From a virus: 18,257 nt of DNA. Below, piece after piece: positions 38 through 16,251 of the stretch. Each line of letters begins with the position of its first letter. Position 1 is the stretch's first letter. The DNA is taken from UHGV virus genome UHGV-0068637; one strand, given 5' to 3'. The notes beneath the pieces were generated by a model that saw only the letters and a program-made list of their open reading frames with translations, ran no database searches and was not told the origin of the DNA. The position numbers and the translations under genes are program-made.

Positions 38-3000
38 TTATTCTTCGCTTCCGGTCAACTGACTGATAAGCGCTTCAAGTTTTGCTATCCGCTCATCCAT
101 TGCAGTAACGTCAGCTTTCAGGCTTGCGTTAACCTCATTCATTGCGGCAACGTTAGCTTTTAAGTTTGCGTTCTCCTCTTCCATTACAGCAACGCTGGCT
201 TTCAGGCTTGCGTTCTCCTCTTCCAGTTCGGTGACGCGATCATCCGTTTCGCGTGCCACCTGGACAAGTAAACCAGTAACCGCCGCATAGTCAACGCTGA
301 GGCACTTCATTTCCTCGCGTAAGATGTTGCCGTCAGTTGTTGGCCCTTGTAGCTCCTTGCCGTAAAGAGTGGTAAACGCTATCGCTTCAGGCAGCGCGTC
401 CATTACTTCCTGTGCAATAACACCAGCGTAAGGAAGGCCGTCATCTTTAAACGTGTAGGTATACCCGTTCATCTTACGGATGGATCCGGTGGCGTCACCT
501 ATGACCTTAATGTTGTCTTTAAGGCTCTGGTCAGAAGTTTGATACAGCGTCTTACATGTAAGATCGCCGTTAAAGTCAAATTTTCTGTTACCTGCTGCAT
601 CTTCCTGAGCATAGAACATGTATTGTTTGCTGTTACCAACCTCAAAAACGCTTTCCCTTCCGCTTTCACCCCATACCCTTACACTCCACGACTGCGCCGA
701 GGTGTCAGAGTTCCTTAAAAGAAGGCGCGGGCCGCTATCGCTGTTTTTAAGGATAACGTCGCCTTTTGCGGTTACGTCACTGACTGTGGTTAGCGTATTA
801 ACAGACACATCCTGATTTCTTCCTGAAACAACAATCTGACTCCATGCCGTCCAATTACCGTTCTCACAATAGCGAACGTATATTTGCTTCGTGTCTGTGC
901 CGACAAGTGTTTGTATGTTTGTGTAGTCTGTATCACTAATCTTGCGAATGGATTCTACACGCAACAAGAAGTTACCGCCTACACCGCTAGGCTTGTTGGC
1001 AATAGTGTTACCACCGCCTGCACTTGCGCATTGATAGTATTTAACAGAACCTTTATCAGATGCCTTAATAACAACGTTGTTAAGATCAATCTCCTGGTTT
1101 TCAATAGGTTGCGGATAGATAGGCCCGTACATACCTGCACTGAATGTGGCAAGGGCGGAAAACGTCGTTTGACCACCTACCGTCACACCGCTATCAAGCA
1201 CTGCTTGCGTGATAACTTTGCTGTTTGTTTTGTGATCGGGATTGTTACCAAAATACAGATCACCGCTGCCATCAATACCGAGGTATTTTTGAACAACGCT
1301 ATCAACCTTGAAGCCAATGGATAGGTTTTCAGAATACCCTGTACGCGTTAAAAGTAACGGTGTATGCTGTTTACCGCTGATTTTTAACGTGTTCTCCGTA
1401 GTTTCCGTGTTGTCGTTGGTGAACTCAGCTGTACGAGATGTTACTTTATATAGGATCTTTGCGCTGTTCGCCTGGATGCTTCCATCATGACGAACAACAA
1501 AATCACCTGTAGCCGTGCCGTTAGTGGTATTTGCCCGAATGCGGACTTCGCCACCCTCTTCGGAATTGGTAGGCGCCCAGATAACACCGCGTTCAGACTG
1601 GTCCTCATTCTGGAACCATAAATGGGCGGTTCCACTTTTTGAACGCAGATAGATCGACGGTGTTCCTTTAAGGATCGTCAGGTCGCCAGTCATGGTGTCA
1701 CCACCTTTTTTAACCTGAGCATCGTTGGTTACGTTGCCAAGTCCAACGTCAGCTTTAGACGGCTTGTATTTGGTTCCGTATAGAGTGTTGATCTGGAAAG
1801 TACCATCTTCAAGCGATCTGTCGTTACCAGAGAAAATCCTGACATTACCTGTGCCGTAGTCGATATTGATCGCAGACCACGTATCGCCGCACCGCGAGAA
1901 TACACCAGAACCGTGGCTGTGAAATGTGGCTGTGCTACCTTTTGGCTTACCGGATCTCCAGAAACACCCACCTTGCGCTTTCAGAGCTTTCAGTAAATCC
2001 TGATCGGTCATGTAACCCGTTGTGTCAGACCACGTTATCCCAGAACCACCAACACCGTAATTGCCTTTAAGCAGGGCATCTTGAAGGCCCAAATCTGCCT
2101 TAGTCGGCTTGTTTTCCTGGTCGTAAATCCTTATTGCAGGGCTTTCGATATATCCCTCTGGGGCGGTTTGTTGTTCGACATAGCCTTCTGGAATGTACAG
2201 TTCAGTCATGCCAGTCTGTGCCAGCACAGCAACCCTTGCGTCCTTAATGAATGCCCGCTGATAGCCCCAGACTTCAAAATATCCATCGCCCGGAACAATG
2301 CCGTAACGCATTTTGTTTTGTGCGTCCAGCCCTGCAGATCCGAGGCGGCGAACACCCAAAAACTTAGTTATGTTTGCACTGGTTATTCCGCCTGCAGTGG
2401 TGTAATTGCGAGCGGAGATCTCGATAAAGTCAATATTGCCGTAAGTCTTGCCGTAGTTACATGCGTTAGTAATCATTAGCGTCAGGTGGCAGTCACTAGC
2501 GCCCGGATCGGTCATTTTTGCGATCTTCACATAACGGGCATAATCAAAGGTATTGATAGGCCATTTACATTGAACCAATGCGTTGTTAGACCTTACTATC
2601 TGATTCAGATATTCTTGCGCCCTGTTCTCTGATGTTTTGGCTTTGGTTTCGCTTGTTTTTGCTGCCGTTTCGCTTGCCTTAGCGTTGGTTTCTGATGTTT
2701 TCGCGGCGGTGGCGGAGTTTGCTGCCGCTGTTTTTGATGCTGCTGCCGCGTTTTTGTCTGATTCTGTTTTTTGAGCGTTGGCAGTTGATTTCGCCGTTTC
2801 TGCGCGAATGTTGGTAAGAAGTTGTTCCATTTGACCATCACCGCCGAACTCATTCCACCACTCTACGGCGGAGGCGATTTCTGTTTCTTTGCTCTGGTAG
2901 TAACGCAGGGTTTCAGCTACGTCCTGAGCAAGCCCATCAACTGAGATCGAATCAGATAGCAGGATGCTAAATTTTGTCCCAGCAGGGATTGCGGGGTTAG

Positions 3001-3184
3001 CTGCTGGCGTCACTGACAGTTCAGTGCCGCTTTTAATTTCCGTGATGGTAAAGATCTGCACAGGATTGCCAACAGCAATGAGCGTGCAACCTACACGAAT
3101 AAGGGAAAGCGGCGCGGAGAAGTTTGTGCCCGTGCCTTTAACAGTGTTGCCATTGATGGCAATTGTTCCAGTTGTGTAAATCAT
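38..3184 (-). CDS. Side tail fibre protein with C-terminal intramolecular chaperone (peptidase S74-like) domain
   Basis: 1048-aa ORF, ATG at 3182-3184 with GGAG upstream. The Ala/Lys/Thr-rich 'AAKTSETNAKASETAAKTSETKAKTSE' region resembles lambda Stf / T4 fibre collar repeats. The C-terminal ~150 aa carries the 'TSDQSLKDNIKVI...GYTYTFKDD...GVIAQEV...LPEA...SVDY' signature typical of self-cleaving chaperone domains (endosialidase / T5 pb1 type), followed by a heptad coiled coil (ENASLKASVAVMEEENANLKANV). Confidence 0.8.
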   Translation of the reverse strand: MIYTTGTIAINGNTVKGTGTNFSAPLSLIRVGCTLIAVGNPVQIFTITEIKSGTELSVTPAANPAIPAGTKFSILLSDSISVDGLAQDVAETLRYYQSKETEIASAVEWWNEFGGDGQMEQLLTNIRAETAKSTANAQKTESDKNAAAASKTAAANSATAAKTSETNAKASETAAKTSETKAKTSENRAQEYLNQIVRSNNALVQCKWPINTFDYARYVKIAKMTDPGASDCHLTLMITNACNYGKTYGNIDFIEISARNYTTAGGITSANITKFLGVRRLGSAGLDAQNKMRYGIVPGDGYFEVWGYQRAFIKDARVAVLAQTGMTELYIPEGYVEQQTAPEGYIESPAIRIYDQENKPTKADLGLQDALLKGNYGVGGSGITWSDTTGYMTDQDLLKALKAQGGCFWRSGKPKGSTATFHSHGSGVFSRCGDTWSAINIDYGTGNVRIFSGNDRSLEDGTFQINTLYGTKYKPSKADVGLGNVTNDAQVKKGGDTMTGDLTILKGTPSIYLRSKSGTAHLWFQNEDQSERGVIWAPTNSEEGGEVRIRANTTNGTATGDFVVRHDGSIQANSAKILYKVTSRTAEFTNDNTETTENTLKISGKQHTPLLLTRTGYSENLSIGFKVDSVVQKYLGIDGSGDLYFGNNPDHKTNSKVITQAVLDSGVTVGGQTTFSALATFSAGMYGPIYPQPIENQEIDLNNVVIKASDKGSVKYYQCASAGGGNTIANKPSGVGGNFLLRVESIRKISDTDYTNIQTLVGTDTKQIYVRYCENGNWTAWSQIVVSGRNQDVSVNTLTTVSDVTAKGDVILKNSDSGPRLLLRNSDTSAQSWSVRVWGESGRESVFEVGNSKQYMFYAQEDAAGNRKFDFNGDLTCKTLYQTSDQSLKDNIKVIGDATGSIRKMNGYTYTFKDDGLPYAGVIAQEVMDALPEAIAFTTLYGKELQGPTTDGNILREEMKCLSVDYAAVTGLLVQVARETDDRVTELEEENASLKASVAVMEEENANLKANVAAMNEVNASLKADVTAMDERIAKLEALISQLTGSEE

Positions 3185-3361: not shown

Positions 3362-3610
3362 ATGAAAAACGTGTTCAAAGTGGTTTTGTTCGCCACGGCT
3401 GTTGCTCTTACTGGTTGCGCTGTTGACAAGGAGGCTGCATTGCATAACCTGCCGAATAGCGGAGTGATTCCACAAGATGTCGTCTATGATGGCAGCGGTC
3501 ATCTTGTCTATGACACTGAAAAACTGCCGTATACTGGTCAATGGTGTCATGAACTTGATCACAATATGCGCCGCATCGGTAGCCCTTCTAACTGTGTAGC
3601 TAACTACTAA
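3362..3610 (+). CDS. Small secreted lipoprotein, Cor-like superinfection-exclusion candidate
   Basis: 82-aa ORF with a signal peptide and lipobox (MKNVFKVVLFATAVALTG|C), a good RBS, and an intrinsic terminator immediately downstream. It is opposite-strand to, and sandwiched between, the J-like gene and the tail fibre, the position where cor-type lipoprotein morons sit in phi80/N15/T1-like phages. The function is inferred from context only. Confidence 0.65.
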   Translation: MKNVFKVVLFATAVALTGCAVDKEAALHNLPNSGVIPQDVVYDGSGHLVYDTEKLPYTGQWCHELDHNMRRIGSPSNCVANY

Positions 3611-3613
3611 AAG

Positions 3614-3644
3614 AAAACCCCGCGCGAAGCGGGGTTGTTTTTTA
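3614..3644. terminator. Bidirectional rho-independent terminator (lipoprotein gene / J gene convergent)
   Basis: Hairpin CCCCGC-GCGAA-GCGGGG followed by TTGTTTTTT on the plus strand, with an A-run on the other side giving a T-tract on the minus strand. Lies between the convergent stops at 3610 (+) and 3642 (-). Confidence 0.75.
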
Positions 3645-6600
3645 TATCCATGTTCCTGAACTTCTTGTTATAAGTATTAAACCTGGTTTTCTTATTGCTG
3701 CATTAGATGTATTGGTAAAGTTTTCCGTCACCTCTACTGTAATTGTTGGGTATGTGAGGCCAGATACACAGTGCACCGCGACAGTTGACATTGCTGGGGT
3801 TGATGCTGGCCTTTCTATATTAATTGTTTTTTGGTGTCCGCTTATATTTATAGTTACATTGATGCGAGAAGATTCACTATATGTATAGTATGACAAATCA
3901 TACGGAATCATAACGTAAACTGTTTTTGATAAACTTGATGAACTTGAATCAAGATAAGTTTTCGAAACGCGCCTGCTGCCATTTCCCCTCATTGACGGAA
4001 ATACATCCTCGTTTATCACTGACATACTTGCTACGTCACCAACAAAACTTGTAGCTTCAACTGCTCCAGTAAATTTACCGCCAGTTGCGTAAACAGTACC
4101 GTTAAACACACCAGCATAAGCGTATACCGTACCCCTTACGGTTACCTGGTTAAATACTGCGTCACCGGCTTTATCTATCGCCCATCCTGTACCGTTTTCC
4201 CAGCTGTAATTAACTGACTGTATTCGATCAGCTATTTTGGCGGAGTTGATAGTTCCGTCCTTAATAAACGCTTCTCTTACATACATTGCGCCATTGGTGA
4301 CATAGAAAGGCGTTATATATGTGCCGTTTGCTTCCGTCATCAACACGAAGCGGTCAACAAGGAAGATACACTGCGACTGGAAGTTAGTACCATCACCAGT
4401 GAGGCCAAGCGACATACCTGTCGCGTACGTCTTGCCGTAGTTGTCGGTTGCCAGCTTGATAGAGTACGACGCATCAACATTGCCTTTGAAGTCGGTCAAT
4501 GCTTTGGATGTCGTTTCTATTGCCGTTTTATTCCCGTTAACGGTCACTGTTAGCTGATCGATTTTCGTTGATAACGCCTCGTCAGCCGTAGCCATCGCCT
4601 GCGACCATTCAGTGATACTTGCGTCTACCAGTTCGAAGGACGCTGAGATCTGGCTGAATTTTTCAGCGTTTGATTCCTCATGCGTAGCTAGTGCCGTTGA
4701 TACCTCAGATACTTTCGAGTTGATTTCACCGGTAAGCGATGCGCTAAGGCCGCTTATTGCGTCTGCGCGTGCTTTTGTTTCGTCGGCGATAGCCTTGTCC
4801 ATCCTGGTAATGTTGCTCGTTACCTTGCTGTCAAGCGTTGAGATTGATGCATTCACACCGCTGATTGCTTCGCCGCGTGCACTGGTTTCGTCCGCAATGG
4901 CTTTATCGAGGCGGTTAATGCTTGCTTCCGTTTTCTTATCAAGATCTGTGATAGATGCGTTCACACCACTAATGGCTTCCGCTGTTGCCTTTTTCTCTTC
5001 CGCCATAACCTTGTCAATGCGGTCGATTTTCGCATTGGCTTCCCTGATCCCTTTCTTGTATTTGGCTGAAAGGGCAACATGCGTGTTGGTCTGAGCGATT
5101 GAGTTATTGATAAGTGCAATCGAGGTATTCTGCATACTTGCTTTGGTCTGGTTGATTTCATCGCTGTTTTTCTCAACGTTGTTTTCAACCGCACCAAGTT
5201 CGGCGCTGATACCGGATATTGCCTGCGCACGGGCGCTTGACTCGTCGGCAATGGCCTGATCCAGGCGCTTGACGCTGGCGTTTGTGTTGTTCTCAAGCGT
5301 TGTTAAGTCTGCTTTGACCTCTGTTATTGCGTCACTTCTTGCCTTCGTTTCGTCTGATATTGCTTTATCAAGGCGGGAAACGCTGGCGTCTGTTTTCTTG
5401 TCAAGGGTGTCGATCGATGCCTTCACGCCACTGATGGCCTGTGCGCGTGCGCTGGCCTCGTCAGCGATTGCCTGGTCGAGTCTGTTCACCTCTGATTCAG
5501 TGTTGCCTTCAAGCGTGCTGATGCTTGCATTAACGCTGCTGATAGCGTCAGTGCGTGCCTTCGTTTCGTCTGCAATCGCTTTATCAAGGCGATTAACGTT
5601 ACTTGTTACCTTGCCGTCAAGTGTGGAGATTGATGCCTTCACACCATTGATGGCTTCGGTTCTCGCGCTCGTTTCGTCGGCAATAGCCTTATCAAGGCGG
5701 CTTATGCTTGAATCGGTTTTCTTATCAAGTGCTGATACTGAGGCGTTCACCCCATTGATAGCTTCTGAGCGTGCGCTTGTTTCGTCTGCAATAGCTTGAT
5801 CCAGACGTTTAACGCTGGCGTCTGTTTTCTTGTCAAGTGCTGAAATGCTTGCGTTAACGTCGCTGACAGCCTGGGTTCGTGCGCTCGATTCATCGGCGAT
5901 TGCCTGGTCCAGACGTTTAACGCTGGCGTCAGTTTTCTTGTCAAGATTGTCTATTGAGGCGTTCACACCGTTAATAGCTTCGGCGCGTGCGCTGGCCTCG
6001 TCAGCCACTGCACGTTCCACGCTAGAAATCTGACCTTTAAGGTTGGAATCCATCGTGTTCATTTCTGCCGTGATGGTTTCCAGTGATTCCGCTGTCGCTT
6101 TTTTCTCTTCAGCGATAACGTTGTCAATACGGTCAATTTCCGCTTTCGTTTCCGTCCTGCCTTTCTTATACTGGGCGGTAAGGGTTACGCGCGTGTTTGT
6201 CTGTGCAAGCGAGTTGTTGATAAGCGCCAATGAAGCGTTTTGCAGGCTTGCTTTTGCCTGTGCCAGTTCGCTGTCAACTTTTTCGCTTGACACTTCTAAT
6301 AAGTCGATTCTGGACTCATGCTGACCAATATCATCGGCGTTCTCTTTAACTTTTTTGTAGAGATCTTCCGTTTCTTTTTTAAGCGTATCGGTGTCAGCTT
6401 TTATTGTTCCTGTTTCCGTGATCAGATTGTCAGTGTCAGTCCTTAAATCTTCAGTTATGTTGTTCAGGTTGTCGGTTTCGGTCCTTAAATCTTCAGTTAC
6501 GCTGGTAAGGTTGTCAGTTGTAGTTTTGAGGCTGTCAGTAGCAGTTTTCAGTTCTTCCGTGACACCATCAATGACATCGGCGCGGTCGCCAAGATCTTTG

Positions 6601-9083
6601 ATGTCACTAATCATATCTTTGAACTGCTCAGACTCCATGACGTCCTTCATCACGTAGTCGCTGATTTCGTCGAAGTTTTCAGTCGGTTTACCTGATGCCT
6701 CAACGAAGTCTGACACACCAAAGGCATTGCGCGTGCGCACATAGACGTAATAGGTGCGGCCCGTGTTCATGCCGCCAAACGTCCACTGATAACCACGTCC
6801 GGTGTATTGTGCCTTAGTGGTCACTGATGCCGGATCTGTGATTTGATTTTCACCAGCGAAATAGAACTCATAACTAGTGTCAGTGGTGAGCGTTGTTCTG
6901 CTAATCGGGTAAACTGTGGCCTGAAATACACCAGGAACCCAGTTGACACCTATCGGGGCCGCTGGCGCACCAATAACCAGGTCCACAATGCTTTCCGCAC
7001 CCTTCATGCCCGTGTCGTTTCTGCCACGGATGCCTAACGAATAGGTTCCCGCATCAATGCCATAAAAATCATGGCTGTAATTAGTGGTTTCGTAGTATTT
7101 AACCACCGCTCCCGCTGTATTGTATACGCGGATCTCAAAGGTAAGACGATGAGTTGTTGTCATCGTTTCCCATGTTGCGCGACATTGAACCGTTTCGGAT
7201 CCAACGTTCATCACTTTCAGGTTTTCAATGTTAGGCACGCGGAAGTGATTGAGCGTGTCGTTGTTGACTTCAAAGACTGCACCTTCATCAACTACAGCCT
7301 GTTTGTGAGGATCGTGCTGTGCCGCCTCTATGGTGTACACGCTGTTGTTTTCAGTTTCCGCAACGCTGACGATTCGACATAACACGGGTTTAGCTGCGTC
7401 TGTTGACACGGCGAACACAGTACCGTTACGAATCCATGCAGGGGCGGATGCAAGGGTAATTTGGTTCACGTTAACACCAGTGATCTGATGTTTTTTAAAC
7501 TTGCCATCACTGTCAAGCAGGCTGATGGTATCACCAGGGGCGATATATTCAGAGTCAACATTATCTACAGTGATAACCCTGCCACTGTTTGCCACGATGC
7601 GACCGCCCAAACGAGCGCCTGCGCGGTTATTGTCGAGTATCTCGATAATATCACCAGGGGTGAAGTGAATCGCGTCACGGGCCATTTTAAACGTGAATTT
7701 TGAGGGTTCGCGTTTTGCTGTTTCTATCAGCCATTTGCCAGCGCGGTAAGCCTGCCCGCGTGACGTGCAACCAAAAGCCTCCAACGTGGTTTCGTTGTAA
7801 CCATCGCGGGCGATCAGTTCATCATCTGCTACGTATTCTTTTGATTGTTCCCAACCGTTTTCCGGGTCAGTCCATGACACAATCACAGCGTTGTAAGATT
7901 CCGCGCGGGCGATACTTGAACGAGTAAATGCGCCATCAACGACGTTTGCATTCGTGATGGTGGCAATTGGATCTTGCGGTGCATCAATCATCACCGTAAG
8001 GCGCTGCCCGTCCCATAACGCGATACCACGGAACATGCCTGCAATGTTGTCCAGCAAGTCGCGGGCGCTCATTTGCTCAGTGATGTAAGCGTTAAGCGTC
8101 ATGCGTGGTTCAAGGCCGCCGTAACCGTCGTTTACCAACTGGTCGCAGTATTGAGAAAGCACATATAATGCGCCATCATCAACGTCAATGTAACCGGCGT
8201 GGCGGGTAAGCCCGAAGCGTTCATTTTTCACCAGATACCGGAAAAGCCATGCAGGGTTGTTGGTGTATGCCTTTTTGAAGCCACCAAGCCATAAACCTGA
8301 GTATGTGCGTGTTTCCGGGTCGTAGTTATCAGGCACGTCAACAATCAGGCCGCGCATGTGATAGGTGCGTGTCGGCGTGTCGGTATACTGATCGTGGTCA
8401 ATTACCGCGCCTGCTACAGCGGTGTGAGGATAAGACAAGTTATCGTCTATTATCTCGCTGTAACTGCTCCACCTGGTGTCATTGCGAAGTAGATCGCTTT
8501 TACTGTCTGGCGTTACGCGACGAACGCGAATATCAAACGGTTTTTCATCCGGCGCTTGGATGATGTGCGCTTCCATATACTCGCCGCTTTGTTTACCAGG
8601 GCCAATGGTAATATCTTTGACTAGTGACCACGTTGTTGACGATGATGGCTTAACATCAACCATCAACACAACAGATGTATTGTATTGATTGCCCTTGTCA
8701 TCTGACTGAACCAGAGAATCAACGCCAAGATTCAGCCTTACGCGGTTAACGTTTGGATCTGAAACGGTCCTGATTATTGGCGTATCGTGAGTCACTTTTG
8801 CGTTAACAATAACGGTTGATTCAATGGCGTTGAAGCCGTTGATTGGTGACTGGTCAGCCGTACCATTACGCCACGCCACGCTAACGCCAGGGACCGATGT
8901 GCCGCCGTTGGCGTCAGTGATTGGGCTGTCATTAAGCATTACGCTGTTTAATGGCGCTTTCTGGTTTACAGGGCCGTAGATTGGGCCTTCGCTGAGAATG
9001 TCCAAAACACGATAAAACTGTTTATGAAACAGGTTATCGTTTAATAATGTTGGTGTTTTGGCTTTGCCGCCGCCGCTACTCAT
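3642..9083 (-). CDS. J: Host specificity / central tail fibre protein (lambda J family) with large coiled-coil repeat insertion
   Basis: 1813-aa ORF with AGGAGA RBS. The N-terminal ~800 aa is collinear with lambda J ('ILSEGPIYGPV', 'NPAWLFRYLV...RFGL', 'LSQYCDQLV.DG.GG.EPRMT.NAY', 'EAFGCTSRGQAYRAGKWLI'), followed by FN3-like segments. The C-terminal ~300 aa is a J-like receptor-binding region. About 650 aa of repeat-rich alpha-helical sequence sits in between. Confidence 0.9.
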   Translation of the reverse strand: MSSGGGKAKTPTLLNDNLFHKQFYRVLDILSEGPIYGPVNQKAPLNSVMLNDSPITDANGGTSVPGVSVAWRNGTADQSPINGFNAIESTVIVNAKVTHDTPIIRTVSDPNVNRVRLNLGVDSLVQSDDKGNQYNTSVVLMVDVKPSSSTTWSLVKDITIGPGKQSGEYMEAHIIQAPDEKPFDIRVRRVTPDSKSDLLRNDTRWSSYSEIIDDNLSYPHTAVAGAVIDHDQYTDTPTRTYHMRGLIVDVPDNYDPETRTYSGLWLGGFKKAYTNNPAWLFRYLVKNERFGLTRHAGYIDVDDGALYVLSQYCDQLVNDGYGGLEPRMTLNAYITEQMSARDLLDNIAGMFRGIALWDGQRLTVMIDAPQDPIATITNANVVDGAFTRSSIARAESYNAVIVSWTDPENGWEQSKEYVADDELIARDGYNETTLEAFGCTSRGQAYRAGKWLIETAKREPSKFTFKMARDAIHFTPGDIIEILDNNRAGARLGGRIVANSGRVITVDNVDSEYIAPGDTISLLDSDGKFKKHQITGVNVNQITLASAPAWIRNGTVFAVSTDAAKPVLCRIVSVAETENNSVYTIEAAQHDPHKQAVVDEGAVFEVNNDTLNHFRVPNIENLKVMNVGSETVQCRATWETMTTTHRLTFEIRVYNTAGAVVKYYETTNYSHDFYGIDAGTYSLGIRGRNDTGMKGAESIVDLVIGAPAAPIGVNWVPGVFQATVYPISRTTLTTDTSYEFYFAGENQITDPASVTTKAQYTGRGYQWTFGGMNTGRTYYVYVRTRNAFGVSDFVEASGKPTENFDEISDYVMKDVMESEQFKDMISDIKDLGDRADVIDGVTEELKTATDSLKTTTDNLTSVTEDLRTETDNLNNITEDLRTDTDNLITETGTIKADTDTLKKETEDLYKKVKENADDIGQHESRIDLLEVSSEKVDSELAQAKASLQNASLALINNSLAQTNTRVTLTAQYKKGRTETKAEIDRIDNVIAEEKKATAESLETITAEMNTMDSNLKGQISSVERAVADEASARAEAINGVNASIDNLDKKTDASVKRLDQAIADESSARTQAVSDVNASISALDKKTDASVKRLDQAIADETSARSEAINGVNASVSALDKKTDSSISRLDKAIADETSARTEAINGVKASISTLDGKVTSNVNRLDKAIADETKARTDAISSVNASISTLEGNTESEVNRLDQAIADEASARAQAISGVKASIDTLDKKTDASVSRLDKAISDETKARSDAITEVKADLTTLENNTNASVKRLDQAIADESSARAQAISGISAELGAVENNVEKNSDEINQTKASMQNTSIALINNSIAQTNTHVALSAKYKKGIREANAKIDRIDKVMAEEKKATAEAISGVNASITDLDKKTEASINRLDKAIADETSARGEAISGVNASISTLDSKVTSNITRMDKAIADETKARADAISGLSASLTGEINSKVSEVSTALATHEESNAEKFSQISASFELVDASITEWSQAMATADEALSTKIDQLTVTVNGNKTAIETTSKALTDFKGNVDASYSIKLATDNYGKTYATGMSLGLTGDGTNFQSQCIFLVDRFVLMTEANGTYITPFYVTNGAMYVREAFIKDGTINSAKIADRIQSVNYSWENGTGWAIDKAGDAVFNQVTVRGTVYAYAGVFNGTVYATGGKFTGAVEATSFVGDVASMSVINEDVFPSMRGNGSRRVSKTYLDSSSSSLSKTVYVMIPYDLSYYTYSESSRINVTINISGHQKTINIERPASTPAMSTVAVHCVSGLTYPTITVEVTENFTNTSNAAIRKPGLILITRSSGTWI
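4730..6040 (-). repeat. In-frame 108-bp tandem repeat array (about 10 copies, 36-aa unit) inside the J-like gene
   Basis: The motif 'tcaag...gcgcgtgcgctggcctcgtcagc' recurs with exact 540-bp (5 x 108) spacing, e.g. 5401 vs 5941 and 5451 vs 5991. The protein unit is 'DKKTDASVKRLDQAIADESSARTQAVSDVNASISAL' and variants. The array is split into two blocks (about 2.5 and about 7.5 copies) by a duplicated ~250-bp spacer segment. Confidence 0.85.
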
Positions 9084-9096
9084 GGTTTTTCTCCTG

Positions 9097-9627
9097 TTAA
9101 CTTACAACGTCAAGGGCGTCTCTGTTGTTGCTTGTGTCTATGCCTAACGACCCGACATTTGAACCTATTTTCATTTCACCCAACAGGATTGGCACTGGTC
9201 TACCCTGTCCTACTTTGTTCTCAATGCTGGTGTATGTGTTGTTAGATATGGTGTTATCTTGTGCGCTTTCTGCTGATGTTTTTATCTTCATGTTGCGTGA
9301 CATAAAGATCGAGAAAGCAACGCTAACAACAGAAACACCGATTAAAATCCAGCCTACAACGCCAATCCCAGCAATACCACCTTCCACCACTGGCGCAACA
9401 ATCACTGTAGTTCCGTCAGGGTATTTACTATTAACCGCTGCCGGGGCCGTCTTTTCGTCATAATCTTTTCCGGCAATTCGTAAGCGCAAAGGTGTATTTA
9501 AAAAAGCCTTCTTGAACTCCTGATCCTGCGCGGTCAATATGCTAAGTCCTTGCGCTGGCGTATCAACGTTTAAACACACCTTGCCGTAATATCTTCGAAG
9601 ATTGCCCGTAAATCTAAATTTGAGCAT
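9097..9627 (-). CDS. I: Tail assembly protein I-like
   Basis: 176-aa ORF overlapping the 3' end of the K-like gene, as in lambda. The C-terminal 'ISNNTYTSIENKVGQGRPVPILLGEMKIGSNV' matches the lambda I 'NTYFSSLDNMVAQGNVLPVLYGEMRVGSRV' region, and there is a hydrophobic central segment. Confidence 0.8.
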   Translation of the reverse strand: MLKFRFTGNLRRYYGKVCLNVDTPAQGLSILTAQDQEFKKAFLNTPLRLRIAGKDYDEKTAPAAVNSKYPDGTTVIVAPVVEGGIAGIGVVGWILIGVSVVSVAFSIFMSRNMKIKTSAESAQDNTISNNTYTSIENKVGQGRPVPILLGEMKIGSNVGSLGIDTSNNRDALDVVS

Positions 9628-10301
9628 TTGTCAGATCTCCATATTGAATTAGTCTGTCGAACATACGCGGGCCGCATTTGCTCGCGGCGGCTTAACAGTC
9701 CGGCATTGTCATGATGCAAAACAGTGTTGTCACCAAGGTAAATCATCGCGTGGCATGGATCTGCACCCTTAAACGGCTGACGAATAATCACATCACCAGG
9801 CTGAATACTTTGCGCGTCAACCATGAAAAACCCGTTCAATGGCAGGTTTTTTATGTACAGGTTTTCCCCACGCAGCCACCACCCATCGTGGCGCTCAAAG
9901 TCCGGCAGATCCACGCCGCAAAGGTGATAGGCGTCACGAAAAAGCGAGTAACAATCCGTTTTCCCGTGCTCAAATTTACGGCCCAACAGGTGCGCAACCG
10001 GGCGGAATTTTCTTACCATGCCACCGGAACACAAATACCACGGCAGGCCGGAAATAACCTGTTGCTGCCGATCCCGTGCTGACAATACCAACGAATCGTC
10101 AGTATGGGAGTGAAAAACGGCTGTTATAACGCCTAATTCGTCAGCTTTGATATAATCGTCAGGCGAGATTTTAAAGCTGTTGTGAGGCGTTTCAGACACG
10201 TTTAAACACGGGTAAAAATAATCGTTATCTATCACCAGCCCGCATACTTCCTCGTCAGGGTGGGCCGCTGCATAGCGAATCATTTTATCTTCAAGCGCCA
10301 T
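9570..10301 (-). CDS. K: Tail assembly protein K-like (MPN/JAB + NlpC/P60 domains)
   Basis: 'HPDEEVCGLV...HSH' (JAMM-like) followed by 'GKTDCYSLFRDAYH...QPGDVI...HAMIYLGDNTVLHH' (NlpC/P60-like), collinear with lambda K. Start chosen at the ATG at 10299-10301 (AAGGTGGG RBS) rather than the TTG at 10307 used by the ORF track. Confidence 0.85.
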   Translation of the reverse strand: MALEDKMIRYAAAHPDEEVCGLVIDNDYFYPCLNVSETPHNSFKISPDDYIKADELGVITAVFHSHTDDSLVLSARDRQQQVISGLPWYLCSGGMVRKFRPVAHLLGRKFEHGKTDCYSLFRDAYHLCGVDLPDFERHDGWWLRGENLYIKNLPLNGFFMVDAQSIQPGDVIIRQPFKGADPCHAMIYLGDNTVLHHDNAGLLSRREQMRPAYVRQTNSIWRSDKCSNLDLRAIFEDITARCV

Positions 10302-10303
10302 AA

Positions 10304-11008
10304 TCAACCCACCTTGCTGGATCCTGGGAAACAGGAAATTGGTAACGGATTAGGACGCGGAAAACGCAAACGGCAACCGCTCAGGCGGTGGCTGCATTTA
10401 TCCAGCTTCGGATCACTGGTTGGCTTGTCTTTGTCAGTAGCTACGGGGCCGCCACTGTATCTGCAACCGTCACCGCGATATTGCCACTGGCAAACGTCAG
10501 CGAGGATTGTGCGCCCAGGTATAACCGCTTTATCTGCATCAATTGGCGTTGACAGTTCATATTGCACCTGGTCCGCTGTTTCTTCGCTCATCGCTTCAAC
10601 GACGTAAAAAGATACAGCCTCAATAGATGGATCTGCATCCGGGTTGCCATTGGGGAAGTTGACGGCGTCCAGGTATTTTACTTCCACCTGGCGGCGTGTA
10701 ACCTTCATTCCTCGCAGATCGTTGAAATCGTTATTCATCCCAGTGATTAGGCCGCCAATGTTGGCTACGACCATTTGGGGGCGTGAGTAAACGCCTTCGT
10801 TTTTCATTTCGAAGCCAGTAGCCTCGATTGGGTAGCTGTTGTAAGCCAATCCCTTCCAGATAACCGGGCCGTAATAGCCATTCGCGCCGGAATGGAAGCG
10901 GATAACCTCGCCACCCAGGGGCGTCAGGTCCAGTTCAAATAAGTCAATGACCGCGCCGACTCCGGCATCCACGGAATCAATAATCATTTCTGTAGGTATG
11001 CTGCGCAT
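10304..11008 (-). CDS. L: Minor tail protein L-like
   Basis: 234-aa ORF with AAGGTGA RBS. 'VIDLFELDLTPLGGEV..F', 'GLAYNSYPIEATGFEMKNEG', 'KYLDAVNFPNGNP', 'ILADVCQWQYRGDGCRYSGGPVATD...DKCSHRLSGCRLRF' are collinear with lambda L including the Cys cluster. Confidence 0.85.
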   Translation of the reverse strand: MRSIPTEMIIDSVDAGVGAVIDLFELDLTPLGGEVIRFHSGANGYYGPVIWKGLAYNSYPIEATGFEMKNEGVYSRPQMVVANIGGLITGMNNDFNDLRGMKVTRRQVEVKYLDAVNFPNGNPDADPSIEAVSFYVVEAMSEETADQVQYELSTPIDADKAVIPGRTILADVCQWQYRGDGCRYSGGPVATDKDKPTSDPKLDKCSHRLSGCRLRFPRPNPLPISCFPGSSKVG

Positions 11009-11292: not shown

Positions 11293-11307
11293 GGGTTATA
11301 ACAAAAA

Positions 11308-11661
11308 ATGGAAAAATACAGATTAGACGTGTGGACTGATAAATACGAATGGGAACGCATGGGGCTATTTGATACATATGAATCAGCGTGTGATGAAGGT
11401 AGTGAATTACTGCGCTGTTGGTCTAATGCTCGTTATTATTATGTTGTTCCAGTACAAGTACCGGATAAGGTGGAAGAGATGAACCCGAAAGATATTAACT
11501 TTAACGTCAATGTTGAATTTGCAGACTCTATGGATCAGGCTTGCCCTGGTGAAATACACGCAAAAGGTTTTCCGGCTGACGATCCAGAAGCAAAACGAGA
11601 ATACGAAAAAGCGGCAAAAGACTTCTGCATAGATAACCTGGGCTGTTTTAATGGCAAATAA
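11308..11661 (+). CDS. Hypothetical acidic Cys-containing protein (cassette A, ORF2)
   Basis: 117-aa ORF with protein-like composition, whereas the antisense frames are Phe/Cys/Ile-rich junk. Lies in an AT-rich region. RBS is weak. Confidence 0.55.
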   Translation: MEKYRLDVWTDKYEWERMGLFDTYESACDEGSELLRCWSNARYYYVVPVQVPDKVEEMNPKDINFNVNVEFADSMDQACPGEIHAKGFPADDPEAKREYEKAAKDFCIDNLGCFNGK

Positions 11662-11676
11662 ATAGTAGGCCAATAT

Positions 11677-11916
11677 ATGAAAATGATTGGTATTATAAAA
11701 CTCGTTGTTACATCTAACAAAAGGGAGGATTTTAATATAAAAGATAGATACCCATTATTCAAAACATCTTCTGGCAATTATTTTACTGTTGACAACTGTT
11801 TAAACTTTGTTCCGCTGACTGTGCTTGATATTTCTGGAGCAAGGGTGAAAGGGTACGGAACTGCTTGCGGTGATGATTTTGTGCCTGATATGCTATTTTT
11901 TGAAACGTGGGAATAA
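11677..11916 (+). CDS. Hypothetical protein (cassette A, ORF3)
   Basis: 79-aa ORF, weak RBS, start could be 11677 or 11683. No recognisable family. Confidence 0.45.
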   Translation: MKMIGIIKLVVTSNKREDFNIKDRYPLFKTSSGNYFTVDNCLNFVPLTVLDISGARVKGYGTACGDDFVPDMLFFETWE

Positions 11917-11921
11917 AAATC

Positions 11922-12188
11922 ATGGGGCGGCGCAATCACGGTGATTATGTGTACACGTTGAAACAGGCCGCCCGCCTCATCGGTTATCATGAGCACGAAT
12001 TTATTAATTTGCTGATTGAGCGCGGGATACTTTACCAGGTCTGTTTAACGCTGTACCCGAAAGCTAAATACCTACAGGAAAAGTTATTCATCATCATGAC
12101 GGATGAAAACCAGGTCAATCACTCATTCGTCACTGATAAAGGTGTCAACTATCTGCGCGATAACTTACAGGGCGGCAATTATGGATAA
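11922..12188 (+). CDS. Putative small helix-turn-helix DNA-binding protein (cassette A, ORF4)
   Basis: About 89 aa from the ATG at 11922 (the ORF track uses GTG at 11907). The N-terminal 'YTLKQAARLIGYHEHEFINLLIERGIL' has the pattern of an HTH recognition unit (excisionase / AlpA / MerR-like). Confidence 0.5.
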   Translation: MGRRNHGDYVYTLKQAARLIGYHEHEFINLLIERGILYQVCLTLYPKAKYLQEKLFIIMTDENQVNHSFVTDKGVNYLRDNLQGGNYG

Positions 12189-12252
12189 GGTTATCGAAAA
12201 TGTTTTGGTAGTGGCTGGCGCAATTGCCATCGTTTATGCCTTTATGAACTAA
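12181..12252 (+). CDS. Possible 23-aa hydrophobic peptide (cassette A, ORF5)
   Basis: MDKVIENVLVVAGAIAIVYAFMN. Overlaps the stop of ORF4. Very short and hand-called, so it may not be translated. Confidence 0.3.
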   Translation: MDKVIENVLVVAGAIAIVYAFMN

Positions 12253-13884: not shown

Positions 13885-13918
13885 AACCCCGGCATTGTAC
13901 CGGGGTTTTGTTTATTTG
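13885..13918. terminator. Bidirectional rho-independent terminator (cassette B / H gene convergent)
   Basis: Hairpin AACCCCGG-CATTGTA-CCGGGGTT followed by TTTTGTTTATTT. On the minus strand a T-rich tract follows the stem. Directly abuts the H stop at 13912-13914. Confidence 0.75.
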
Positions 13919-16251
13919 CGGCGAGGTTGCAACATTCCGCCAGGTCGTTGCGATTCCCTTGCCATCATTTTCATTGCTACGCGTTCCATTGTCTGTTCAA
14001 GCCTGCGACCGTCTTCGTCGCTAAATCCGTTTGTGGTCTGTACGGTGATGTTAACAGGCATATTGATGCCGCCACCATTGAAGAGATCGCGGCCAGGAAT
14101 AACCCTGCCATTTTCCCCAGGAATCATATACTGACGCCCGTTGCTCGTCTGGAATAACTCAGGAATCCCGTGTTCCCCTACGCGATACAGACTTCCACCA
14201 TTAACAGAACCACCATTATAACGTCCGCCGCCAAAAATTGACGTTGCCAGCGACATGATCGCAGAAAGTGCCGCAGCACCAGCCGCCGCCCAGCTACCAC
14301 CAGTTGACGCAGCCGTTGCCGCAGCCGCCGGGGCCGCCGCCGCAGCAATCTGACCTTGCGCCGCCACCGCGCCAGCCGTTGTACTTGCCTGGGTAGCCTT
14401 GCTTTGCGTTTCCATCATCAACTGATCTGCTATCCAGTTGGCGGCAATTTCTGATAGTTTGTTGCCAACGGTGTTAAGTATGCTACTTCCCAGGTTAGCA
14501 AAAACCTCGCTTAGTGATTGAGTACCGTTCAACAGGCCGGTAAGCGCATTACCCATGCCACCTTTTAGGCCACTGACACAAGCGCCGATCAGGCCGTTTG
14601 TGTCGCTCTGTGCCTGCCATTGTTCCCATTTCAGATCTCGGATCTGTTGCTCGTATTCCAATTGCGCCTGTCTCTGTTGCGCCTCTGTAGCGCCCAGGTC
14701 CAATAGCATTTGTTTTCTTACAGCCCATTCATTTTGCGCCTGCTTGATTGGGTCAATTTCTCCCTTAAGCTGGTCCATCGGGCTAACTATGTGGTCCCAT
14801 TTGTCGCGTAGCTCATCAACAGGGATCTGAGCTAATTCGTCTTTCAGTTCCTTGCCTATTCCTTTTTGCGCGGCCTTGTACTCAAGGAGGGTTATTTTGC
14901 CCTGGGCGAATGCAGCATCAATGGCCTTGCCGTTCTCCAGCGCTTTACGCATGGCGGCGGCGTCCTTGTTGTACTGGTCGGACACTTTTATACCTTCATC
15001 ACCAAGCCGATCAGCTTCGGATTTCTTTTGTTTTTTAGGTTTTTTCGGCTTACCAACTGGCTGATCGAATCCTGTGATCTTGCCATCGTCAGCCTCACCC
15101 TGTTTCTCCATGAACTCATCATATGCGGCGGTTGCGTTTTTAATGTCGTTTGCAAACGTCATTACTTTGCCAACGGTAGGGCCAAATTTCTTCTCGTTGT
15201 TGCTGTTTAGCTCTTCTTTGCGTTTGTCTACGATCTCCTTCATCCATTTGTAGCCATCCATTAGCGCCTTGATTGGCGTCACCATCCTGATGATTTCTTC
15301 CGCCACCTCGCCAGCTTTAACAGCAACATCGTCAAATATGTCGATGAACTCGCTACCAGCGGTTTTCAGTGTATTGAAACAGGTTGCGGCGAATTTTGCG
15401 CCTTTACCCAATCCCTCAACGCCACCAGTGATTAAGTCTATTGCTGTAACAACGCCGTCAGATATGCCGAAAAGATTATCAAGCTCTTCGACAACGCCCA
15501 TCATCTCAACTTTAAGCTCGTTGAAGGCTATGCCTGTTGTGCGCGGCAATTGTGCGAACTTCTCGTTTGTTTCCTGCGTGGAGGCCTGGATCGCGTTGAG
15601 CATCCTTTCAGCCGTGATCTTACCGTCCAGCATTTCAGCGCGGAACTGACCCATAGATAACCCCATTTGGCGGGCCATTTCCTGTACGATTGTTGGGGTA
15701 TTGTCGCGTATTGAGTTAAATTCTTCCGCCTGCAACACGCCAGCATCAATAGCCTGGCGGAACTGGCGCATGGAGTTAGATAACTGTTCCGCAGACACGC
15801 CGCCCAGACTACCAAGTTTTTGTAGCGTGCTAACCAGGTTGAGCACCTGGCCTTCCGTAGCGGATGTATTTTTTAGCGATATAGCAAGCCCTTGCCACAG
15901 GTCGCCAGTATCCTTGAGGCTTTGGCCTGTTTCTTTTGATATATCTTTCAGTCTGTTGAAAACACGTTCCGTGGCCTCCGCTTCACCTGTGAGCAGTTTG
16001 ATTTTTACGCGAAGCATTTTTGCTTGCTCCGCCATGTCAATAAACTGGCGCACAGCCTCCGCAGCAAGTAATAGATGGATAACCCTGGACAGTGCTTTGA
16101 TTGAAGTCTTAAGCGTGTTTACCTGGCGGTCAGCGCGTTTTGCGCCACGCTCGATGCTGTCAAATGCCTGGTCTGCCTGTCGTTGAGCAACGAGAAGTTG
16201 ACCAGTTTTTGCATCAACTTCGTAATAGATTGTACCTAAACTGGTTGCCAT
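13912..16251 (-). CDS. H: Tail length tape-measure protein (H-like)
   Basis: 779-aa ORF with GAGGT RBS. The N-terminal two-thirds is alpha-helical and rich in charged residues. There is a Gly/Ala-rich hydrophobic stretch near the C-terminus (AAQGQIAAAAAPAAAATAAS...SIFGGG) and a terminal 'GGSLYRVGEHGIPELF' region like lambda H. It sits directly upstream of M. Confidence 0.85.
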   Translation of the reverse strand: MATSLGTIYYEVDAKTGQLLVAQRQADQAFDSIERGAKRADRQVNTLKTSIKALSRVIHLLLAAEAVRQFIDMAEQAKMLRVKIKLLTGEAEATERVFNRLKDISKETGQSLKDTGDLWQGLAISLKNTSATEGQVLNLVSTLQKLGSLGGVSAEQLSNSMRQFRQAIDAGVLQAEEFNSIRDNTPTIVQEMARQMGLSMGQFRAEMLDGKITAERMLNAIQASTQETNEKFAQLPRTTGIAFNELKVEMMGVVEELDNLFGISDGVVTAIDLITGGVEGLGKGAKFAATCFNTLKTAGSEFIDIFDDVAVKAGEVAEEIIRMVTPIKALMDGYKWMKEIVDKRKEELNSNNEKKFGPTVGKVMTFANDIKNATAAYDEFMEKQGEADDGKITGFDQPVGKPKKPKKQKKSEADRLGDEGIKVSDQYNKDAAAMRKALENGKAIDAAFAQGKITLLEYKAAQKGIGKELKDELAQIPVDELRDKWDHIVSPMDQLKGEIDPIKQAQNEWAVRKQMLLDLGATEAQQRQAQLEYEQQIRDLKWEQWQAQSDTNGLIGACVSGLKGGMGNALTGLLNGTQSLSEVFANLGSSILNTVGNKLSEIAANWIADQLMMETQSKATQASTTAGAVAAQGQIAAAAAPAAAATAASTGGSWAAAGAAALSAIMSLATSIFGGGRYNGGSVNGGSLYRVGEHGIPELFQTSNGRQYMIPGENGRVIPGRDLFNGGGINMPVNITVQTTNGFSDEDGRRLEQTMERVAMKMMARESQRPGGMLQPRRK

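Follow-up and report, generated by a model that had tools for sequence, protein, structure and literature searches.

In phage lambda, the central tail fiber gpJ is built, in order, of hub domains, two fibronectin type III domains (FNIII-1/2), an alpha-helical shaft at residues 809-861, a beta-prism and a receptor-binding domain. The shaft is a three-helix bundle that clamps the FNIII-2 trimer, and residues 841-861 turn to strand in the LamB-bound state (PMC11101478). The F2 pyocin (PyoF10, PDB 25vf) carries a J-like hub followed by an "exceptionally long" shaft, solved as a three-stranded coiled coil (PMC13455828). The mEpimmI temperate coliphages encode J proteins that differ in size, with "repeats of different length (positions 950-1,475)" (PMC11893012, section 3.6). 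The locus described here is an 18,257-nucleotide stretch of the E. coli phage genome UHGV-0068637 (the window), which encodes a J homologue of 1813 amino acids (aa). The long repeat-built rod of this protein is very probably the alpha-helical shaft of a lambda-J-type central tail fiber, expanded by tandem duplication from ~53 to ~730 residues, an architecture of the kind seen in the F2 pyocin.

The J homologue comprises a lambda-J-type hub, two FNIII/Ig domains, a helical shaft, a beta-prism and a receptor-binding domain, in that order. By phmmer, aa 1-851 align with lambda J 1-858 (PDB 8iyk, E 4e-179) and aa 1517-1688 with lambda J 840-1001. Pfam identifies FNIII-A_GpJ, Phage-tail_3, Ig_J and Ig_J_second within aa 88-811, the last two (Ig_J at aa 609-707, E 7e-14; Ig_J_second at aa 709-811, E 1e-31) being the FNIII/Ig domains that follow the hub, and Phage_Tail_Tip at aa 1521-1658 (E 3e-38); it finds nothing credible between Ig_J_second and Phage_Tail_Tip. 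PHROGs assigns the protein to phrog_31, "central tail fiber J". The NCBIfam lambda_TipJ match (E 3e-213) scores 710 bits, below the 1950-bit cut-off of this exception model, and thus the protein is not lambda J itself. The gene order tape measure, M, L, K, I, J is preserved on one strand and is shared by the mEp phages. A reading of the window from its sequence alone (the sequence-only reading) had set 1813 aa against ~1130 aa for lambda J and placed the extra length between the FN3 region and the receptor-binding C-terminus. Both points hold: the open reading frame translates to 1813 aa and lambda J (PDB 8iyk_J) has 1132, and phmmer and Pfam together locate the ~660-680 extra residues between the FNIII region and Phage_Tail_Tip. 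The region it delimited, 4580-6560, is real, though its bounds are slightly too narrow, since the helical rod predicted by AlphaFold2 (AF2) spans aa 803-1533 (window 4485-6677). The gene and its parts are as follows, with model confidence given as the predicted local distance difference test (pLDDT).

3642..9083, minus strand: J-type central tail fiber / tip attachment protein gene, an open reading frame of 1813 aa
6678..9083, minus strand: hub domains and two FNIII/Ig domains (aa 1-802), aligning to lambda J 1-~806 and constant in length in all homologues
6564..6677, minus strand: shaft N-terminal helix (aa 803-840), equivalent to lambda J ~809-847 by phmmer, with AF2 helices at 803-816 and from 819 onward
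6333..6563, minus strand: heptad array, 10-11 copies of T-[DE]-x-L-x-x-x (aa 841-917), from layout, periodicity and Tandem Repeats Finder (TRF)
6162..6332, minus strand: linker and hinge 1 (aa 918-974), ending ...QAKASLQNASLALINNSLAQTNTRVTLTAQYKK (elsewhere given as ...ALINNSLAQTNTRVTLTAQYKK), without 3.5-3.6 periodicity and with an AF2 break
5190..6161, minus strand: 36-aa array 1, nine units (aa 975-1298), with 3-12 units in homologues
5052..5189, minus strand: linker and hinge 2 (aa 1299-1344), a paralogue of hinge 1 that parallels aa 940-974
4728..5051, minus strand: 36-aa array 2, three units (aa 1345-1452), with 2-5 units in homologues
4485..4727, minus strand: non-repeat C-terminal shaft end (aa 1453-1533), its last ~30 residues helix or strand depending on the AF2 run
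4107..4484, minus strand: beta-prism of the central straight fiber (aa 1534-1659), from Phage_Tail_Tip, AF2 strands and Foldseek
3645..4106, minus strand: C-terminal receptor-binding domain, a beta-sandwich (aa 1660-1813), with AF2 pLDDT ~90 over 1677-1812

Comparison with lambda shows where the additional residues come from. The N-terminal half of the lambda shaft corresponds to aa ~802-851 of the J homologue and its C-terminal end to aa ~1517-1538. Because both ends of the lambda shaft align to the ends of the rod, the repeat arrays expand an existing domain, and the term "insertion" used in the sequence-only reading gives way to expansion within a shaft that lambda J already has. The two shafts occupy the same place, between FNIII-2 and the beta-prism, but that of lambda has ~53 residues against ~730 here, a ~14-fold difference, and lambda gpJ has no 36-aa units, heptad array or hinges. 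Other relatives are recognizable as well. Foldseek matches the C-terminal model to the lambda gpJ central fiber (8xcj, E 5e-13; 8xck, E 7e-9), and phmmer matches the C-terminal part of the rod to residues 880-977 of T1 gp33 (9l9p_S, E 6.6e-11) and aa 1364-1539 to residues 914-1086 of the F2-pyocin central fiber (E 3.5e-7). The lambda, T1 and pyocin structure entries contain three chains each. Since J is trimeric in every solved relative, the three J chains would be expected to form a parallel three-stranded coiled coil here too, running from the heptad stretch through the two 36-residue arrays, which two short conserved non-periodic segments would interrupt.

The helical character of the rod is supported by composition, structure prediction and periodicity. 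First, the protein has no proline between aa 801 and 1591, and the rod contains 3% Gly and almost no aromatic residues. Second, AF2 predicts ~94% of the rod as helix. In a monomer run over aa 795-1560 with an alignment of 38 homologues (run 1), helices cover 803-816, 819-928, 934-963, 980-1299 and 1309-1533, the longest being 320 and 225 residues, with strands from 1540; the only breaks are at 964-979 (pLDDT ~40, around G975) and 1300-1308. A second monomer run, over aa 1381-1813 with a more diverse 25-sequence alignment (run 2), again gives helix for the 36-aa units (pLDDT 87-93), which stops at 1503, and places strands at 1509-1515 and 1518-1524 with pLDDT <50. The segment aa ~1504-1533 is therefore helix in run 1 and strand in run 2, at low confidence. 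Third, the hydrophobic moment of both 36-aa arrays peaks at a period of exactly 3.60, with a power of 280 (the highest of 200 shuffles reaches 111), and that of the heptad array peaks at 3.54 (124 against a shuffle maximum of 74). The spectrum of the two linkers shows no helical periodicity.

Several searches with the rod itself return little. Foldseek of the rod model against the PDB gives nothing below E 0.3, because a single long helix is not searchable in that way, and Pfam, NCBIfam and PHROGs searched with the rod alone give only sub-threshold, generic coiled-coil matches (SMC, "helix-rich protein", tape measure). The PF28217 label carried by homologues was rejected as a curated rod domain, being a faint, generic coiled-coil match to FAM81B. 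A profile built from 19 trimmed diverse C-terminal regions returned 26 proteins, mostly fragments.

These data also bear on whether the repeats form a natively beta-structured fiber (a beta-helix or beta-prism) or beads of globular domains. AlphaFold3 (AF3) gives a beta-prism for 30% of related fiber regions (He et al., PMC12874032), and small residues and Ser/Thr are abundant in the units. However, the power at period 2.0, the beta signature, is 30, about one tenth of the 3.60 peak; both AF2 runs return helix; the solved homologues are coiled coils before ejection; and proline is absent, with few Gly or aromatic residues. A native beta fiber is thus very unlikely. The AF2 helices, the 3.60 period, the lack of proline and the weak period-2 signal likewise leave the globular-repeat alternative unsupported, and the extended helical rod of the sequence-only reading stands.

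The rod is composed of ~10 heptads plus nine and three units of 36 aa. The 36-aa unit had been noted before from a copy at aa 1048-1083, and it recurs in twelve in-register copies with the consensus LDKKTDASISRLDKAIADETSARAEAISGVNASIST. Columns R11, D13, E19, A22 and A32 are invariant over all twelve. Core positions read from the consensus are 1, 5, 9, 12, 16, 19/20, 23, 27, 30 and 34, a spacing of 4-4-3-4-3-4-4-3-4-3 or 3.6 residues per turn; each unit consists of two 18-residue half-units of 11+7 and makes ten turns per 36 residues. From this spacing, the 36-aa arrays read as a nearly unsupercoiled bundle, unlike a classical left-handed coiled coil. The short-period region first placed at 6390-6560 resolves into heptads T-[DE]-x-L-x-x-x at aa 841-917, and TRF reports periods of 42 and 21 nt there (6422-6548).

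The 36-aa repeats are old. Canonical units are 50-83% identical to each other in protein and 55-80% in DNA, and the longest exact DNA word common to two units is 27 nt, indicating that the repeats have been selectively maintained and are not a recent slippage array; slippage-driven hypervariability was rejected on the same grounds. TRF detects only the best-preserved part of the 36-aa arrays (5617-5993, period 108, score 267). The head units that follow the two hinges are 53% identical and closer to each other than to canonical units, which argues that a hinge and its head unit were duplicated as one block.

Several 36-aa units also contain terminator-like hairpins antisense to J, on the plus strand, at 4908-4928, 5262-5284, 5802-5824 and 5912-5930. 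They are formed by the codons for D-A-S-V-K-R-L, and 17 such sites occur in the J repeat region, compared with 8.4 +/- 2.8 after shuffling. In their published annotations, mEp044 and mEp554 each have one antisense ARNold "terminator" inside J. These hairpins probably follow from the repeat and do not act as signals.

Comparisons among homologues show that the length of the rod changes in whole units. The anchor FVEASGK lies at position 792 in 120 of 120 homologues; since the N-terminal 792 aa are constant, all length change falls in the rod and the C-terminal domain. Splitting the rod at its two hinge motifs gives three segments, which were scored in 100 clusters (90% identity) and vary independently among homologues:

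Segment 1: 125, 146, 160, 174 or 188 aa, in steps of mostly 14 aa (two heptads)
Segment 2: 154 to 478 aa, in steps of 36 aa
Segment 3: 179, 215, 251 or 287 aa, in steps of 36 aa

Pairwise alignments with homologues that are 93-97% identical contain clean in-frame differences of -36, -72, +108 and +14 aa, the last an exact insertion in homologue P0034. One 82-aa deletion removes hinge 2, which is absent from P0047 and MagusPhagus. Rod length is accordingly set by unit copy number: related phages add or drop entire units in frame, most likely by recombination between diverged repeats. The expectation in the sequence-only reading that copy number sets fiber length is borne out by these exact indels of 14, 36, 72 and 108 aa, whereas its "hypervariable" overstates the case: the units are old, and a single architecture, 160/370/215, accounts for 54 of the 100 scored clusters and is kept down to ~84% identity. 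With one architecture dominant, the rod is variable and not hypervariable.

The same comparisons dispose of the possibility that the repeat region is an assembly artefact or part of a decaying gene. The window appears to be metagenomic, and short-read metagenomes are prone to mis-assembly at repeats, but the units, at only 55-80% DNA identity, are easy to assemble, and the frame is intact through all 1813 aa. An identical protein is present on six independent contigs, at least 54 distinct 90%-identity clusters have the same three segment lengths, and the architecture recurs in many complete E. coli genomes and isolated phages. This explanation is effectively refuted.

The mEpimmI temperate coliphages come closest to the window, with 82-87% DNA identity where the sequences align and 47-78% query coverage. 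Relatives in this group include mEp021, mEp010, mEp013, mEp044, mEp515, mEp554, MagusPhagus and ~38 E. coli prophages (PMC11893012). J has the following lengths in the isolates:

mEp044: 1828 aa
mEp554: 1828 aa
mEp021: 1727 aa
mEp010: 1707 aa
MagusPhagus: 1478 aa

The mEpimmI J proteins and the J homologue are encoded by the same gene in the same synteny and share the 792-aa N-terminal length, the three arrays and both hinges, while the J homologue has its own segment combination of 160/370/215 aa. Its length, presented at first as unusual, is the norm within this group: the 120 best database homologues all measure 1573-1935 aa and the isolates 1478-1828 aa. Beyond the group, an HMMER scan with the hub (aa 1-800) finds 6813 relatives. 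The 150 nearest 50%-identity clusters have a median length of 1371 aa, with 58 of at least 1500 aa and 11 of at least 2000 aa; 65 of these clusters have a proline-free stretch of at least 200 aa that starts near residue 800, in 11 it is 400 aa or longer, and in one 700 aa or longer. The rod thus falls toward the upper end of a known, continuous range of lengths and is an extreme case within an established domain class.

Rods of this repeat type are found in other phages too. A tblastn search with the rod recovers 202 phage records, mostly annotated as J or tail fiber, from Drexlerviridae and relatives. Fibers of T1 (gp33) and other Drexlerviridae share the repeat type at 25-38% identity in the rod, on a different hub lineage; the T1 shaft is short, its 352-aa C-terminus being modeled by AF3 as ~37 nm. 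In the Klebsiella phage vB_Kpn_K62PH164C2 (L004 824-7513), J is 2229 aa long and has a proline-free stretch of 1333 aa; ~1250 of its residues belong to the AIA-x-E-x-x-AR repeat type found here, and two "ENALAND" elements resemble the hinges. As the Klebsiella rod is longer, the J homologue is not the record holder. Very long shafts with hinge-like interruptions may, judging from these sequences, have arisen in or spread across several phage families. The F-type pyocin fiber shares with the rod the repeat type E-x-x-A-R...A-[IL]-x-x-[VI]-x-A and the pattern SxSxxMxxLxS. It is shorter: the pyocin central straight fiber comprises residues 819-1204 (~386 aa), of which the fold-switching coiled coil is 163 residues, compared with ~730 in the rod.

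The protein family, its shaft domain and the repeats in these proteins are already published, and longer examples exist. The mEpimmI study does not offer a structural reading of the repeats or describe their quantized steps (PMC11893012). Modest as a sequence finding, the result is of value for providing a length series for the mechanics of J-type fibers: in the mEpimmI group, hub and gate stay the same and the shaft ranges over 412-867 residues in 14- and 36-aa steps, and several members have been isolated that infect K-12 and whose receptors are known (LamB, OmpA). J-type shafts remodel on receptor binding, modestly in lambda and completely in the F7 pyocin. Such a series makes it possible to ask about reach through surface polysaccharide, the kinetics of adsorption and ejection, and fold switching of the repeats.

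It is plausible that the expanded shaft serves for reach. At ~0.148 nm per helical residue, the rod, a largely rigid stalk on this reading, would measure ~105-110 nm when fully extended (~108 nm for 731 residues), close to the ~130 nm of the mEpimmI tails, and would bear the beta-prism and the receptor-binding domain distally. The rods of MagusPhagus (412 aa), mEp010 (659 aa) and mEp044 (781 aa, as in mEp554) would be ~60, ~98 and ~116 nm long. By keeping the tip at a distance from the tail cone, the rod would let it reach an outer-membrane protein through surface polysaccharide (O-antigen or capsule), and it would relay binding back to the FNIII gate. The C-terminal end of the rod probably joins the helix-to-strand remodeling described for lambda and F-type pyocins. 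Local, lambda-like remodeling at aa ~1504-1533 is likely because this segment equals lambda 841-861, which becomes strand on LamB binding. J has been detected by mass spectrometry in mEp021 virions (PMC11893012).

A number of observations weigh against this account. The mEpimmI tails are ~130 nm long, and a tip fiber of ~100 nm is not mentioned in their description (PMC11893012); a rod that folds back at its two hinges, or that is invisible in negative stain, may explain this. The AF2 models are of a monomer, the trimeric coiled coil being drawn from the relatives, and the confidence of the whole-rod model in run 1 is moderate only (mean pLDDT 67, 70-84 in array 1; predicted template modeling score 0.23). 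As to reach, rod length is independent of the C-terminal type, with rods of 505-867 aa joined to the same 276-aa C-terminus, and mEp021 and mEp554, which use OmpA and LamB respectively, have an identical rod architecture.

A more dynamic function can be proposed for the same repeats. The rod, or a large part of it, might be a metastable, fold-switching spring or winch that shortens several-fold, pulls the tail tip to the membrane and opens the gate, so that copy number would set stroke as well as reach. The switch has been demonstrated in the F7 pyocin (He et al. 2026, PMC12874032) and is predicted for 21 of 24 siphophage central fibers related to the pyocin C-terminus; it is marked by SxSxxMxxLxS motifs that alternate in orientation and by acidic-Arg i+/-4 pairs (He et al., PMC12874032). 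Several features of the rod resemble this system. The segment aa 1364-1539 is homologous to the F2-pyocin shaft, although its phmmer E of 3.5e-7 is to the F2 fiber and the threshold of He et al. is a BLAST E < 1e-6 against F7, with another program and database size. Of the 12 units, 9 have a forward copy of the motif at position 22 and 8 a reversed copy at position 7, with S positions off the predicted core and M/L positions on it; the rod as a whole has 35 matches, where shuffled sequences give 9.6 +/- 3.0. Ten of the 12 units contain an E19-R23 (i, i+4) pair, a beta-prism seed lies directly C-terminal (strands from 1540 or 1509; Phage_Tail_Tip from 1521), and the last ~30 rod residues, which flip between helix and strand across the AF2 runs, align with the switching segment of lambda.

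Other points weigh against such a spring. The motif is loose, with an estimated chance of ~6% that a single unit carries both orientations, and the units are copies of one ancestor; because they are not independent, the shuffle statistic counts one unit repeatedly and its significance is discounted. Even run 2, with its more diverse alignment, models the 36-aa units as helix (pLDDT 87-93), and only the junction is ambiguous, at low confidence; two monomer runs of 25-39 sequences, a weak test, did not give the units in both conformations. The heptad array lacks the motif, and lambda and T5 do not show the extensive switch (He et al., PMC12874032). The switch in F7 was demonstrated, while the J homologue is known from sequence and monomer models. 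A spring of this kind is therefore an unlikely alternative to the long helical stalk. Still less probable is its full form, in which the whole 36-residue array acts as a giant F7-type switch and collapses from a ~100 nm coiled coil to a ~25-30 nm beta-prism on receptor binding. A fold switch of the whole rod is possible but unsupported, and improbable on the present evidence. If true, it would mean that a non-contractile tail is reeled through O-antigen or capsule to the membrane, that lineages tune reach and stroke by the number of 36-aa units, and that a "non-contractile" phage carries a contractile central fiber.

The hinges raise a separate question, compatible with the long-stalk explanation, of whether the rod serves as a docking platform for the side tail fiber (window 38-3184). 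A Gly-containing kink in the F2-pyocin shaft is where three side-fiber trimers attach (PMC13455828). Conservation in the rod is highest over hinge 1 and its preceding linker, where 75% of columns do not vary among 39 homologues, AF2 breaks the helix around G975, and the side fiber gene lies immediately downstream of J. Against docking, the hinges have no sequence similarity to the pyocin kink, which HMMER aligns to an ordinary unit; hinge 2 is dispensable, as P0047 and MagusPhagus show, and is predicted as helix by AF2; and the excess of conservation is too slight to indicate a binding site. By analogy with the pyocin, docking at the hinges is conceivable but doubtful.

The receptor-binding domain (aa 1660-1813) is 58% identical to that of MagusPhagus and 32% identical to that of mEp044, and it has no match to that of mEp021. 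Receptors have been assigned as OmpA for mEp021 and LamB for mEp044 and mEp554 (PMC11893012). Comparison of C-terminal domains did not yield a receptor assignment, and because the closest relative is MagusPhagus and not the LamB- or OmpA-using mEp phages, the phage may use a different receptor. A Foldseek search with the domain returns lambda J, the tail-needle knobs of Sf6/HS1 and Bdellovibrio fiber tips.

The genes around J are arranged as follows:

13912-16251, minus strand: tape measure protein (TMP_3), upstream of J
10304-11008, minus strand: L homologue (Phage_tail_L), upstream of J
9570-10307, minus strand: K-like NlpC/P60 and JAB protein, upstream of J
9097-9627, minus strand: open reading frame in the I position, upstream of J
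38-3184, minus strand: side tail fiber with an S74 chaperone domain, immediately downstream of J

The side tail fiber, of 1048 aa, has a Peptidase_S74 intramolecular chaperone domain at aa 884-934 and ends, at its extreme C-terminus, in three 14-aa coiled-coil repeats (TRF period 42; window 92-225). Near its N-terminus is an Ala/Ser/Thr/Lys-rich 7-aa repeat of the AAKTSET type (window 2633-2692). Between J and the side-fiber gene, on the plus strand at 3362-3610, lies a gene for an 82-aa lipoprotein that begins MKNVFKVVLFATAVALTGC... and has the lipobox LTGC; it matches phrog_12984, "lipoprotein", at E 9e-27. Its position is that of the Lpp superinfection-exclusion lipoproteins tested in mEpimmI phages (PMC11893012). 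The gene is convergent with J, and the two share a bidirectional terminator-like hairpin at 3616-3636, just after the J stop, which has an 8-bp stem with six G-C pairs and T-runs on both strands. In mEp021, a putative HNH endonuclease gene (L007 1937-2503) separates I and J; it is absent from the window and from mEp044, mEp010 and mEp554. A cassette of small genes on the opposite strand (window ~11300-12200, plus strand) is located between the M-like and L tail genes, and one of its products has a weak ANT (antirepressor) match. The mEp phages have a similar block of small hypothetical genes between M-like and L, while lambda has none there.

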